A stretch of 64,000 bases of DNA from Minisyncoccia bacterium (GCA_965656375.1 CBFHKH010000001.1:644291-708290), one strand, 5' to 3'; shown: positions 51,175-54,667, counted from the first letter of the stretch. Notes: a model not told the origin generated them from the sequence alone. Numbers and translations are program-made.

Positions 51175-52920
51175 ATGTCTGCCTCAAAAACTCCACAATT
51201 TGATGCGCTGCTTGATCCGATATTGGATGCACTTGTTCCTCACACTCGAACCTGTATTGGAAGTAGTATTTCAAAGTTTTGTGAAAAAGAATTTACAATC
51301 ACTGATACTGATATTACTTTCTATAAAATGCTCCGTGTGCCACCACCACTTTCTTGTCCAACCTGTCGCAGGCAGAAACGTTTTGCGTTTGTGAATCGCT
51401 CTTCTTTTTATAAAAGGCGTAATGATGCTCCAGATGGTCCAGCGACTATTATCTCGTATGTGCCCCCCAAATCTCCACTTATTGTATATGACTATGAATA
51501 CTATCGATCTGCCAACTGGGATCCGACTACATATGGAACGACCTACGATCCAAACAAAACATTCTTTGATCAGTTATATGATTTGCGGTTACGTGTACCT
51601 CAACCATCGATTGTAAAAGATCCTTCGAATATAAATTATGAGTATTCTCTCAATGGTCGCGATTCAAAGAATGTGTATTGTTCAAGTGGAGCATTCAGTT
51701 CAGAAGACATTTGGTACTGTGTATTTGTTACAAAAAGTAGAATGATTATGGATGGTCACAAGGTAGCTCATGGAGATAATTGCTATAACATTTTCTTCTC
51801 CCCAAACTGCACTGGCTGCCAATATATACATTTCTCAAAAGAATGTATTGATTCCAAGTTTCTCTATGATTGTCGCAATTGTCAGGATTGTTTTGGATGC
51901 GTAAATCTCCGTAATAAAAGATACTGCTTTTTTAACGAACAACTCGACAAGACTACATATGAAACACGTCTCAGAGAACTTGAACTTGATAAGAGAAGTT
52001 CTATTGAATATATAAAAGGAAAATTTTGGGAGTTTGTTAAGTCACAGCCGATACTTGGTAGTCGATCAGTACAAGCAATTGATTCGAATGGGGTGCTTCT
52101 CACTAACTGCAGGAATTGCACCGAATGTGTTTCTGTTGAACGAGCAGAAAATGAGCGCTATTGTGATTCAACAATAGGACATCGTGATTCTATGGACGTG
52201 TATACGTCAGGGGGATCAGAGCTTATGTATCAATGTACGGGCTCAGGCTCTGATTGTGCGAATTCTAGATTTCTAGTGAATTCTAAATTTATCACTGACT
52301 CTGAATATCTCTTCAATTGTAGAAATTGCCAATTCTGCTTTGGATCTATTGCGCTTGAGAATAAAAAACATTGTATCTTTAACAAGCAATACGAACCCGA
52401 AGAATATTTCATAGAATTGGACAAGATCAAGTCAAACATGCTCGCGAATGGGGAATATGGAGAGTTTTTCCCGTATTCGTTCTCGACATTTGCATACAAT
52501 GGTTCTGATGTCGACTATACATATCCGCTTGAAAAAGAAGAAATCGAAAAACTCGGAGCTCTCCATCAGGAGAATATTGATACAGACCTCACTGGTTTAT
52601 CACTTGTAACTCGTAATGAACTTTCAGATTCGATCAAAGATGTGACGGATGAAATATTAGGACAAGCAATTGTGTGCGAAGAGACAGGCAAACCATTTCG
52701 CATTATCAAAAGCGAACTCGATTTCTATAGAAGAAATTCTATTCCTGTACCAACAGTTAGTCCCTACAGAAGGATGAAGAATATGTTCATCTATATGGGT
52801 AACAATTTGTCTTATTCTGATACATGTAAATCATGCGGAATCAGTATTGAGACAATATATGAACCCAATACTGGTTGGAAGCCATATTGTGAGAAATGTT
52901 ATCAACAAGAGGTAATCTAA
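51175..52920 (+). CDS. cysteine-rich repeat protein A (terminal CxxC zinc-ribbon modules flanking internal C-x2-C-x2-C repeats), function unknown
   Basis: Start at ATG 51175, right after the ruvX stop. Zinc-ribbon modules (LSCPTCRRQKRFAF...; C-terminal PYRRMKNMF...CKSCG...YCEKCYQQEVI). Internal repeats NCRNCQDCFGCVNLRNKRYCFFNEQ, NCRNCTECVS...YCDS and NCRNCQFCFGSIALENKKHCIFNKQ. Confidence 0.6.
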   Translation: MSASKTPQFDALLDPILDALVPHTRTCIGSSISKFCEKEFTITDTDITFYKMLRVPPPLSCPTCRRQKRFAFVNRSSFYKRRNDAPDGPATIISYVPPKSPLIVYDYEYYRSANWDPTTYGTTYDPNKTFFDQLYDLRLRVPQPSIVKDPSNINYEYSLNGRDSKNVYCSSGAFSSEDIWYCVFVTKSRMIMDGHKVAHGDNCYNIFFSPNCTGCQYIHFSKECIDSKFLYDCRNCQDCFGCVNLRNKRYCFFNEQLDKTTYETRLRELELDKRSSIEYIKGKFWEFVKSQPILGSRSVQAIDSNGVLLTNCRNCTECVSVERAENERYCDSTIGHRDSMDVYTSGGSELMYQCTGSGSDCANSRFLVNSKFITDSEYLFNCRNCQFCFGSIALENKKHCIFNKQYEPEEYFIELDKIKSNMLANGEYGEFFPYSFSTFAYNGSDVDYTYPLEKEEIEKLGALHQENIDTDLTGLSLVTRNELSDSIKDVTDEILGQAIVCEETGKPFRIIKSELDFYRRNSIPVPTVSPYRRMKNMFIYMGNNLSYSDTCKSCGISIETIYEPNTGWKPYCEKCYQQEVI

Positions 52921-52927
52921 TCATTAT

Positions 52928-54667
52928 ATGCAAACTCGAAATTGCCAAAATTGTAAACAAGATTTTAATGTTGAACCAGATGACTTTTCATTTTATAAAA
53001 AGGTAGGAGTACCTGCACCGACATTTTGTCCAAGTTGTAGACTCCAAAGAAGATTAGCATATATAAATGAAAGGACTCTTTTCAGGAGACCATGTAGTAG
53101 TTGCGGAAAATCTATTGTTTCTATTTACTCTGAAGAAGGCAGTTATCGGGCGTTTTGTGATGTATGTTACAACTCCGAATTAAGAGATGAATATGAATTT
53201 GGAGTAGAGTATGATTTCTCAAAACCTTTTTTCTTACAATTTGATCAACTATTTAAAAAAGCTCCGCACCGAGCGCTTGTCCATAAAGATAATAATGCGG
53301 AAGGCTGCGAGTATGCGAACTATACGTACAAAAGTAAGAATACCTATCTTTCCTTCAGTGTTGTTGGTTCGGAGGAAATTTATTACTCCAAGCAGGTGAT
53401 GAAGAGGAATAAGATATGTCTCGATTCTATGAATATCCTCGCGAATGAACGGGGGTATGAACTTATTGAATCAAGCGGTAATTACAATTGCCGATTCCTT
53501 GTCCGATCGAGCCAGTGTGTCGAAAGTATGTTTCTTTTTAATTGTAAAAATTGTACAGATTGCTGTCTTTCATCAAACCTCCAAAACAAAAGCTATGTTT
53601 TTCGAAATCGGCAGCTCACTCGAGAAAAGTATATGGAAGCAGTACGAACCCTCATGCTCGATAGCCATTCTGGACAAGAGACAGCAAAAGAAGAATTTAA
53701 GATTATTTCTCAGAATGCGATTTGCCGTTTTGCTCTTATTAAGAACTGCGTAGATTCGACTGGTAATTTCATGGAAGATTGCAAAAATGTTAAACACTCA
53801 TTTAATGTCGTTACATCGGAGGATTCAAAATATGTATATCTTCAAGTCAACAAGATGAGTAGTTCGTATGATATGTTCTATACTGGCAAGATGGAACTCT
53901 GTTATGAAGTTTCCAATGGGGGAGCAGTAGATTACCATGTTCTCTTTTCACTCGATATTGGCAACTCAAAGGATGCTTATTACAATAATTCTTGTAATTC
54001 GTGCAGTAATATCTTCGGTTGTGTCGGTTTATATGGTAAAGAGTATTGTATTTTAAATAGACAATATACGAAGGAAGAATACGAAACACTTGTTCCGCAA
54101 ATTATCGAACACATGAATGAAATGCCATATGTCGACAAAAAGGGAAGAATCTATAAATACGGAGAATATTTCCCTACTGATCTTTCTCCATTCCCATACA
54201 ATGAGTCACTCGCGTATGAGGAATTTCCACTTGCCAAATATGAAGTTGAACAGGAAGGATATATTTGGTCAGATCATCAAGAGAAATATGCTGATTCAAC
54301 TATACAAAGCAATTCACTTCCTGAGAGCATCGCAGAAGTTGATGATAGTATTGTAAAAGAAACAATTGCTTGCCCAAATAAAGGGGATGTAAAAGTTCAA
54401 TGTACCTTTGGATACAGAATTCACCCCGAAGAGCTTAGATTCTATCGGTTAATGAATATTCCTGTCCCGCGATATTGTCCAAATTGTCGTTATTATCAAC
54501 GCTTATATTGGAAGCTCCCATGGAAACTTTGGCATAGAACTTGTATGTGTGATTTATCAACTCACTCACATAAAGGGAAATGTTTAAATGAATTTGAAAC
54601 AGCATATGCTCCTGATAGACCAGAGAGGGTTTATTGCGAGAAATGTTATCAACAAGAGGTGATATAA
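52928..54667 (+). CDS. cysteine-rich repeat protein B, paralog of protein A
   Basis: N-terminal CQNCKQDF...FYKKVGVPAPTFCPSCRLQRRLAYINERTLFRRPCSSCGKSIVSIYS. Internal NCKNCTDCC... and CNSCSNIFGCVGLYGKEYCILNRQ. Same C-terminal ...YCEKCYQQEVI as protein A. Confidence 0.6.
   Translation: MQTRNCQNCKQDFNVEPDDFSFYKKVGVPAPTFCPSCRLQRRLAYINERTLFRRPCSSCGKSIVSIYSEEGSYRAFCDVCYNSELRDEYEFGVEYDFSKPFFLQFDQLFKKAPHRALVHKDNNAEGCEYANYTYKSKNTYLSFSVVGSEEIYYSKQVMKRNKICLDSMNILANERGYELIESSGNYNCRFLVRSSQCVESMFLFNCKNCTDCCLSSNLQNKSYVFRNRQLTREKYMEAVRTLMLDSHSGQETAKEEFKIISQNAICRFALIKNCVDSTGNFMEDCKNVKHSFNVVTSEDSKYVYLQVNKMSSSYDMFYTGKMELCYEVSNGGAVDYHVLFSLDIGNSKDAYYNNSCNSCSNIFGCVGLYGKEYCILNRQYTKEEYETLVPQIIEHMNEMPYVDKKGRIYKYGEYFPTDLSPFPYNESLAYEEFPLAKYEVEQEGYIWSDHQEKYADSTIQSNSLPESIAEVDDSIVKETIACPNKGDVKVQCTFGYRIHPEELRFYRLMNIPVPRYCPNCRYYQRLYWKLPWKLWHRTCMCDLSTHSHKGKCLNEFETAYAPDRPERVYCEKCYQQEVI

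Follow-up and report, generated by a model that had tools for sequence, protein, structure and literature searches.

What are the two long cysteine-rich proteins encoded side by side at positions 51,175–54,667 of a 64,000-nucleotide (nt) stretch of Minisyncoccia bacterium DNA (GCA_965656375.1, CBFHKH010000001.1:644291-708290; hereafter the window), and with which other proteins might they act? Their genes, here called A and B, belong to a large family of Patescibacteria, whose members are predicted to carry zinc-finger modules at both ends of two beta-solenoids and whose genes repeatedly adjoin genes for a soluble ATPase. The answer offered here, tentatively and as possible rather than probable, is that they serve in the cytoplasm as scaffolds or adaptors stabilised by zinc, acting in sets of paralogues with orphan VirD4-like ATPases and having an Hsp70-connected role in protein handling. 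The two genes are the following.

51175–52920 (+): gene A, 581 amino acids (aa), A-type subfamily (open reading frame (ORF); orthologues with the same N-terminus; AlphaFold2 model)
52928–54667 (+): gene B, 579 aa, B-type, the numerous, multi-copy subfamily (ORF; homologues; AlphaFold2 model)

Gene B starts 7 nt after gene A in the same direction. An earlier interpretation made from the window alone (the sequence-only reading) had proposed two adjacent, paralogous ORFs of about 580 aa, and this was borne out: the proteins are 30% identical over 578 aa (BLASTP, E = 1e-75). Both end in YCEKCYQQEVI, as it had also noticed, and from this identity and the adjacency it had derived a recent duplication or gene conversion, a proposal that did not survive. 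YCEKCYQQEVx stands at the C-terminus of 77 of the 567 family members compared and a relaxed form of the motif fits 483 of them; the shared 11-mer thus reads as the consensus C-terminus of the family, with no sign of recent duplication. Within the last 36 nt, A and B show three synonymous differences, and DNA similarity is lost directly upstream. Orthologues of A in other genomes share 44–80% identity and the same N-terminus, its best distinct homologue being 80% identical and that of B 68%; each of the two has its own orthologues elsewhere (45–80% identity), and GCA_040384425, the closest relative examined, has only a B orthologue after ruvX, the gene that precedes A in the window. Among neighbouring family genes in other genomes (77 pairs), identity runs from 28 to 54%, the median being 40%. 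Recent duplication or gene conversion was therefore rejected, and A and B are full-length, old and functionally distinct paralogues. In its divergence the B orthologue (68%) resembles its housekeeping neighbours (52–85%), and the family is under housekeeping-level constraint. The ORF of gene A is open from 51025, and the ATG at 51175 agrees with the N-termini of all orthologues. In the NCBI record gene A is 601 aa long and starts within ruvX (window 51025–51174); the public annotation probably over-extends the gene, because the orthologue N-termini (M.SKTPQFD...) fit the ATG at 51175.

A pseudo-symmetric architecture of the form Z-S-S-Z is predicted for both proteins, with a double treble-clef zinc-finger module (Z) at each end and two homologous beta-solenoids (S) between them, because profile–profile comparison of sub-alignments (hhalign) revealed two internal duplications. 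The N-terminal module (B residues 8–84) matched the C-terminal one (491–577) with a probability of 99.7% and E = 1.5e-25, and solenoid half 1 (131–243) matched half 2 (280–393) with a probability of 99.9% and E = 4.4e-32. The N-module of B could also be aligned with the C-module of A (second BLASTP alignment, E = 2e-11), so that the matching terminal modules seen by the sequence-only reading were upheld. AlphaFold2 models, built from alignments of about 140 sequences, reached a predicted local distance difference test score (pLDDT) of 92.3 and a predicted template modelling score (pTM) of 0.91 for B, and 92.0 and 0.90 for A. In these models DSSP assigns short strands every six residues, which corresponds to two-strand coils of about 12 residues, and each solenoid half is closed by a cysteine-rich cap motif and a helix. 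The predicted modules are listed below with the evidence for each.

51241–51387 (+): A, N-terminal treble-clef finger ZnA (C27, C36, C61 and C64), helix motif FYKMLRVPPPLSCPTCRRQKR (motif; conservation)
51598–51945 (+): A, beta-solenoid half 1 with six-Cys cap CIDSKFLYDCRNCQDCFGCVNLRNKRYCFFNEQL (DSSP, hhalign, cap patterns)
52045–52392 (+): A, beta-solenoid half 2 with an extra NCRNCTEC and cap NCRNCQFCFGSIALENKKHCIFNKQY (DSSP, hhalign, motif)
52666–52917 (+): A, C-terminal module (sub-threshold PF23477/TIGR04272 at residues 547–579; regular expression; conservation)
52928–53197 (+): B, N-terminal double-finger module (motif; sub-threshold PF24734 at residues 56–90; hhalign against the C-module)
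53264–53617 (+): B, beta-solenoid half 1 with cap C197/C206/C209/C212 and LQNKSYVFRNRQL motif (DSSP, conservation, hhalign)
53717–54067 (+): B, beta-solenoid half 2 with cap CNSCSNIFGCVGLYGKEYCILNRQY (DSSP, hhalign, motif)
54125–54361 (+): B, acidic connector with the conserved YGEFFP...SPFxYNE motif (confidently modelled, mostly coil)
54362–54664 (+): B, C-terminal double-finger module, ending in YCEKCYQQEVI (conservation, hhalign, motif)

Each protein has two copies of the complete cap motif (C..C..C...NK.YC.FN.QY), one closing each solenoid half, and A has one further partial copy, NCRNCTEC; the four to six internal repeats proposed earlier were thus an over-count. The proposed CxxC motif at both ends holds for B, in which all four terminal Cys4 sites are present, but not for the C-terminus of A, where SPYR replaces CPxCR in the FY..IPVP motif. 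The first finger of a module, ZnA, is built from a knuckle in a hairpin and CPxCR at the start of a helix. In B the N-module comprises ZnA with C6, C9, C34 and C37 (FYKKVGVPAPTFCPSCR) and the CxxC-x17-CxxC finger ZnB with C56, C59, C77 and C80, and the C-module comprises ZnA with C482, C492, C517 and C520 (FYRLMNIPVPRYCPNCR) and ZnB with C539, C552, C570 and C573; in this last finger the first knuckle is expanded (C539/C541...C552) and is followed by x17 and CxxC. A retains one intact Cys4 finger per terminal module. Its N-ZnA cysteines are invariant throughout the A and B types, its second N-terminal finger is missing, and the first finger of its C-module is degenerate (C501 only, FYRRNSIPVPTVSPYRR), followed by an intact CxxC-x17-CxxC finger (C551, C554, C572 and C575). 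The A type also has a conserved N-terminal helix extension, M.SKTPQFD.LLD.IL..LVPH.R.C. The acidic connector before the last Z has a family mean net charge of −8 to −10. Neither a hydrophobic segment nor a signal peptide was found in A or B, and both proteins are predicted to be cytoplasmic because hydrophobic segments are lacking.

A census of the cysteine sites in the 567 family members gave the following counts for the terminal fingers.

N-ZnA: complete in 554 members, 0–1 Cys in 7
C-ZnB: complete in 562 members, 0–1 Cys in 4
N-ZnB: complete in 291 members, 0–1 Cys in 272
C-ZnA: complete in 315 members, 0–1 Cys in 185

Judged from these patterns, the terminal quartets appear to be kept or lost as a whole, as expected for single metal sites, and presumably bind zinc; for small stand-alone proteins of the CxxC-x17-CxxC type, zinc binding has been measured by inductively coupled plasma mass spectrometry (PMC12704099). 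Cap 1 follows the pattern C-x8-C-x2-C-x2-C(-x2-C-x8-C), with four cysteines in 438 and six in 182 of the 567 members. Sequence entropy is moderate throughout the family, the caps and fingers being best conserved, and the idea of a hypervariable surface of the kind left by an arms race was rejected on these grounds.

The sequence-only reading could assign the pair to no family, and wider searches agreed with it. Against Pfam and NCBIfam, A and B gave only sub-threshold finger matches (PF23477, TIGR04272 and PF24734), and in a Pfam search of 78 members the only recurrent families were PF23477 (31 members at E below 0.1, best 3e-7) and PF13451 (22 members, best 5.8e-6); no family in these searches covered the core of the protein. 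Sequence searches of the PDB, with single sequences and with a family profile, returned nothing beyond a LIM-like alignment over the last finger, which was not significant (E = 0.013). Foldseek searches of the models returned nothing with E below 1e-3 in the PDB or in BFVD, a set of viral models (best BFVD match 1.2e-3), the fold matches seen being to generic beta-solenoids, and no clear match to a characterised family, the outcome that would have made the pair routine, appeared anywhere. The PADLOC profiles of anti-phage defence matched neither protein, and PHROGs gave one weak match, phrog_15341 (function unknown; 4.8e-5). Among 2.9 million viral contigs there was one partial match, and a phage or mobile origin was rejected.

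Comparison with known systems showed which parts are familiar. The spacing of the zf_Tbcl type (TIGR04272, PF23477 and PF13451) is exact in A (551–575) and B (56–80), the curated cut-offs are not reached by the window proteins (17.4 against 27 bits for PF23477, 15.7 against 36 bits for TIGR04272), and PF23477 is recorded for some orthologues and for the 31 of 78 members above; on this basis the family finger is a divergent member of the CxxC-x17-CxxC domain type, one that makes up about 6% of the protein. Whereas the zinc-binding proteins of Methanosarcina mazei and others of this type are stand-alone proteins of about 40–60 aa, the finger is here one of up to four on a 580-aa body. For the solenoid, the closest known narrow beta-solenoids are curlin CsgA (8c50), a ryegrass ice-binding protein (3ult) and a Tenebrio antifreeze protein (1ezg), yet the marks of a curlin or functional amyloid (Sec signal peptide, Q/N-rich imperfect repeats and a close fold match) are not seen. 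The Foldseek matches to acyltransferases of the left-handed beta-helix (hexapeptide-repeat) type and to gamma-carbonic anhydrases had E values no better than 1e-3 and TM-scores of about 0.1; the coils of these proteins have 18 residues and three strands against about 12 residues and two strands in the family, and Hexapep Pfam matches were found in 0 of 78 members. No Pfam or NCBIfam match in A, B or the 78 members links the family to radical SAM, SPASM or maturation scaffolds of ribosomally synthesised and post-translationally modified peptides, or to 4Fe-4S ferredoxins, and its motifs are CxxCxxC(xxC) without CP. The DnaJ zinc finger (CxxCxGxG; DnaJ_CXXCXGXG) likewise has no Pfam match in A, B or the 78 members, and the motifs differ. 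A literature search covering the family, its Pfam names and cysteine-rich proteins of Patescibacteria found no description, and the paper on protein families of the Candidate Phyla Radiation does not mention the family; in UniRef one member is named 'Zinc-binding domain-containing protein', and in other places members are called 'hypothetical'. Treble-clef fingers and a beta-solenoid are known folds, but the family built from them, its architecture and the system formed by its gene neighbourhood match nothing described.

The family is large. HMMER, run exhaustively against 1.84 billion representatives, returned 5,312 clusters at 50% identity with E ≤1e-3 and 2,213 with E ≤1e-30; the best 150 representatives are nearly all 510–612 aa long and match the profile from end to end. 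Gene B alone has at least 5,907 homologues, and a scan of one genome per species found at least 585 loci. The 80 loci retrieved are labelled as Patescibacteria, as generic 'bacterium' or, once, as 'Burkholderiales', and every labelled homologue comes from Patescibacteria except one apparently mis-binned contig. The copies per locus of about 20 kb are distributed as follows.

One copy: 28 loci
Two copies: 18 loci
Three copies: 19 loci
Four copies: 13 loci
Five to ten copies: 9 loci

The densest array, in L041, has ten copies in 21.7 kb, and one genome may span several loci (MFUM01, at least 7 copies). Since adjacent pairs are only 28–54% identical and most subgroups occur once per locus, the arrays are old sets of differentiated paralogues and not recent amplifications. 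The 'Burkholderiales bacterium' locus (L046, JAMPXW010000002.1), on a 268-kb contig, has the typical Patescibacterial synteny ATPase-FAM-FAM-rsmE-ATPase-DnaJ-FAM-FAM (FAM, family gene) and is probably a mis-binned or mislabelled contig of a metagenome-assembled genome; many third-party annotation assemblies labelled 'Saccharibacteria' carry this Paceibacteria-type family too. Some members of the family are broken up into two ORFs, one after the other (L004/L005, 11526–13221; L011, 1790–3535; L048, 18791–20578; L058, 525–2339), which may be frameshifts, pseudogenes or assembly errors in otherwise intact arrays.

When the non-family ORFs of 83 loci were clustered, the significant recurrent neighbours were VirD4/TrwB-like ATPases and grpE/dnaK/dnaJ. 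The commonest was a soluble P-loop ATPase, with 38 genes in 28 of the 83 loci, which exceeds the Pfam thresholds of TrwB_AAD_bind, DUF87/HerA, TraG-D_C and T4SS-DNA_transf. A family gene directly adjoins 26 of the 38 ATPase genes, against a mean of 9.3 and a maximum of 18 in 2,000 permutations within loci. In 18 cases the family gene lies directly downstream on the same strand, often with a gap of 0–70 bp, and the adjacency is found in several different surrounding contexts. The ATPase is conserved (66–79% identity), abundant in Patescibacteria and annotated as 'T4SS DNA-binding domain-containing' (T4SS, type IV secretion system) or 'CxxC-x17-CxxC domain-containing'; no transmembrane segment was found in these ATPases. 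In its long form (650–800 aa) a PF23477 finger (46 bits) is followed by an apparently disordered tail ending EVPEDVLRKILE, and hidden Markov models of the family's own ZnB fingers detect the finger in all 13 finger-bearing ATPases (E = 1e-8 to 1e-5). The tail is Pro/Lys-rich and 200–350 residues long in long ATPases of the L049 type (for example L043, 2130–4394, residues ~480–754), and the terminal peptide is strictly conserved as (E/K)(V/I)PEDVLRKILE; it may be a docking motif for a partner. In six loci (L022, L061, L064, L069, L083 and L086; L083, 6633–9983) two membrane proteins precede the ATPase–family operon, c17 of about 449 aa with two N-terminal transmembrane helices and c44 of about 185 aa with one. 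The homology of c17 with the N-terminal half of ~920-aa ATPase variants (914–921 aa; L019 and L077) points to a membrane-anchored version of the ATPase that is either split or fused.

A recent survey counted 5,713 VirD4-like type IV coupling protein (T4CP) homologues in 2,918 Patescibacteria genomes, only 148 of them near virB4 (PMC12102498). In 28 of 83 related loci, though not in the window, family genes are operon partners of T4CP-profile ATPases, an arrangement that recalls T4CPs (VirD4/TrwB/TraG) and their substrates or adaptors. Unlike T4CPs, these ATPases are soluble, hardly ever lie near virB4, combine in their long form a zinc finger with a disordered tail, and are placed within the dnaK operon; neither relaxase nor channel genes were observed in the loci. 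The ATPase profile, which could catch VirB4-type proteins, found no further ATPase in 86 loci, a weak test.

The link with chaperones is seen in a large clade of Paceibacteria, where the recurrent order is S9-GrpE-FAMn-PaaX<-DnaK-ATPase(long)-FAMn-RsmE<-ATPase(short)-DnaJ-FAM. Such interleaved grpE-dnaK-dnaJ loci are L015, L017, L021, L026 (6168–22003), L037, L046, L048, L057, L063, L073 and L078, and in 9 of 9 cases GrpE is directly followed by a family gene. A PaaX-like divergent regulator stands in the place of hrcA, and no CIRCE heat-shock operator was found in the window or in 86 loci. The adjacency counts for DnaK, like those for ABC-F, do not exceed permutation. ClpX is an unfoldase with an N-terminal C4 finger and SspB-type adaptors, and an analogy may be drawn with it: a finger-bearing hexameric ATPase beside candidate partner genes in a proteostasis neighbourhood. 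ClpX, however, is an AAA+ protein, whereas the present ATPase belongs to the FtsK/HerA/VirD4 group, and there is no sequence or fold relationship.

How might these elements work together? Gene structure, paralogy, internal duplications, family size and distribution, arrays and gene linkage are observed here, and the fold comes from models, whereas metal binding, contact with the ATPase and the cellular role are inferred. In the scaffold or adaptor explanation the zinc sites would have a structural role, and binding would take place on the faces of the solenoids and on the cap motifs, which are highly conserved (LRNK.Y..N.QY..EEY). The non-identical paralogues would act as sets, forming a hetero-oligomer or else serving as adaptors for a different client each. 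Their partners would be the Patescibacterial VirD4/TrwB-like ATPases, which are soluble, orphan and hexameric, a partnership proposed because of the operon adjacency and the common CxxC-x17-CxxC finger, and the grpE-dnaK-dnaJ neighbourhood suggests a protein-handling module for client delivery, assembly or translocation. Several observations weigh against this explanation. The cysteines of cap 2 are graded rather than all-or-none, so that not every cysteine cluster need bind metal. Acidic and tyrosine ladders in both solenoid halves (E149/E298, D166/D315 and Y177/Y326) could instead form a catalytic or ligand site. Neither an ATPase of this kind nor dnaK, grpE or dnaJ is present in the 64-kb window; about two thirds of the related loci have no ATPase within 10 kb; and the grpE/dnaK synteny may have been inherited once, as a block within a single clade, in which case the loci are not independent.

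A bolder version, which we regard as doubtful, is that the paralogue sets, the orphan ATPases and DnaK/DnaJ/GrpE form an unrecognised protein-remodelling or translocation machine, specific to ultra-small bacteria of the Paceibacteria type and nearly universal there, with the solenoid proteins as client adaptors or structural subunits. If true, it would explain the job of the orphan T4CP homologues and why genomes of less than 1 Mb spend 1–3% of their coding capacity on one family. A large part of bacterial diversity belongs to Patescibacteria, whose genomes are under 1 Mb and whose lineage-specific genes are mostly unannotated; this family is among their largest paralogous expansions, with up to ten 1.7-kb copies in one 22-kb stretch. 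Gene order and the common finger offer a testable partner for VirD4-like ATPases that the 2025 survey left unexplained. The predicted structure is confident and has no solved or viral relative, and a zinc-capped solenoid with 12-residue coils would be a useful structural example of cytoplasmic beta-solenoid design. A confirmed function would name thousands of 'hypothetical proteins' and possibly reveal new ATPase-driven machinery central to ultra-small symbiotic bacteria.

The same gene order could be read as that of a secretion system. The proteins would then be translocated effectors, T4CP-dependent export substrates kept unfolded by DnaK/DnaJ that act inside the host cell of the epibiont, and the ATPase would recognise the conserved C-terminal tail or a zinc module and feed a channel. 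This is unlikely, although the position of family genes immediately downstream of VirD4/TrwB-like ATPases, the membrane proteins c17 and c44 ahead of the ATPase in six loci and the conservation of the extreme C-terminus fit it. T4SS signals are typically C-terminal, and multi-paralogue arrays are typical of host-manipulating symbionts. A T4SS is, moreover, essential for epibiotic growth in one Saccharimonadia strain (PMC12102498), but the T4CP was non-essential in the one strain tested, and the rarity of T4CP homologues near virB4 (148 of 5,713) also speaks against export (PMC12102498). So do the lack of a transmembrane segment in the ATPases and, more weakly, that of a further ATPase in the 86 loci. 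The housekeeping rate of evolution, strict length and stable orthologous subgroups are unlike those of fast-evolving effectors; the best-conserved parts are internal cap motifs and not the termini alone, and the several structural zinc sites predicted in each protein would make it a poor substrate for export in an unfolded state.

A role in nucleic-acid binding brings in the immediate surroundings of the pair, for which the following features were identified.

50733–51173 (+): ruvX, YqgF-type nuclease (PF03652 on an identical Logan contig; sequence)
54675–54893 (+): 72-aa hydrophobic (membrane) ORF, 7 nt past gene B (ORF; orthologue in L087)
54882–54928 (no strand): palindrome with a 13-bp stem, then promoter-like TTGAAT-16-TATAAT with TG (consensus scans; sequence)
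54935–55306: downstream tRNA_bind gene (PF01588)

The ATG of gene A lies 1 nt past the stop codon of ruvX, which makes translational coupling of the two genes in one operon probable. The 72-aa ORF, whose only Pfam match is a weak one to PF07578 (LAB_N), may encode a small membrane partner. In a relative, L087, an orthologue 76% identical to it likewise comes after gene B's counterpart, so it may be the last gene of a ruvX-A-B transcription unit. The palindrome overlaps the stop codon of this ORF, directly before the tRNA_bind gene, and is a probable boundary of the transcription unit. RuvX is encoded 5' of family genes in L006, L010 and L087 as well, and these loci share with the window the context ruvX, A, B and the 72-aa ORF, then tRNA_bind, VTT and PilM. 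The sequence-only reading had correctly set the pair between ruvX and a tRNA-binding protein gene, but had missed the small ORF and the hairpin with its promoter-like site between B and tRNA_bind; the tRNA- or ribosome-associated role that it derived from these neighbours is not supported, as the tRNA_bind gene is apparently driven from a separate promoter beyond the hairpin.

More generally, basic terminal modules might bind RNA or DNA (tRNA, rRNA, the ribosome or scavenged DNA), in which case the solenoid would hold them apart and the ATPase, should it take part, would translocate DNA or RNA. Binding of nucleic acids is common among treble-clef and zinc-ribbon fingers, the charge of the terminal modules is mildly basic (+2 to +5) and Arg/Lys is conserved behind their CPxCR knuckle, ruvX, alaS, infA and ribosomal protein genes are neighbours in several loci, and the family matched by the partner ATPase is named 'T4SS coupling protein DNA-binding domain'. 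We nevertheless see little likelihood in such a function. The overall charge is neutral to acidic (isoelectric point 6.4–6.7) with a strongly acidic linker, no match to a known nucleic-acid-binding domain family or solved structure was found, and the window's tRNA_bind gene appears to be transcribed separately. Ribosomal and alaS genes recur nearby as expected by chance in such small, streamlined genomes, and the ABC-F and DnaK counts stay within permutation. The charge profile, unremarkable except for the acidic linker, led to the rejection of two further ideas, mimicry of DNA and strongly basic binding of nucleic acids.

It is quite improbable that the proteins are redox or Fe-S proteins, that is, electron carriers, Fe-S scaffolds or oxidative-stress-activated holdases whose CxxCxxC(xxC) caps bind [4Fe-4S] or other clusters or act as Hsp33-like redox zinc switches. 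The frequent completeness of cap 1 (438 members with four cysteines, 182 with six) and the adjacency to grpE/dnaK/dnaJ agree with this view; Hsp70/J-protein pairs serve Fe-S scaffolds in the iron-sulfur cluster (ISC) system, and Hsp33 has a Cys4 zinc switch. However, Fer4, radical-SAM, SPASM and Hsp33 matches are absent from the 78 members, the motif is not followed by CP, and the cap-2 pattern is graded. A structural polymer, in which the matching end modules would allow beta-solenoids to stack head to tail in the manner of bactofilins or curli and the paralogues to co-polymerise into an intracellular filament or lattice, has a slim chance: homologous modules at both ends, strictly uniform length and the joint retention of multiple divergent paralogues would suit it, but no bactofilin is among the matches, a locus may have a single copy or as many as 10 or more, and the models (pTM 0.9) predict a compact globular protein with caps and helices that close the solenoid ends and would hinder stacking.

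Further upstream, the window encodes a stand-alone GIY-YIG protein of 79 aa (PF01541, 61.7 bits; 50377–50613, −), next to a tRNA-Ser(tga) gene (50277–50364). Three conserved ORFs without a Pfam family (48166–48777, 48786–49307 and 49319–50041) lie before ruvX, and a few kb upstream are a small thioredoxin/glutaredoxin-like protein (sub-threshold PF00085; 47453–47770, +) and RuvA (46473–47057, −).

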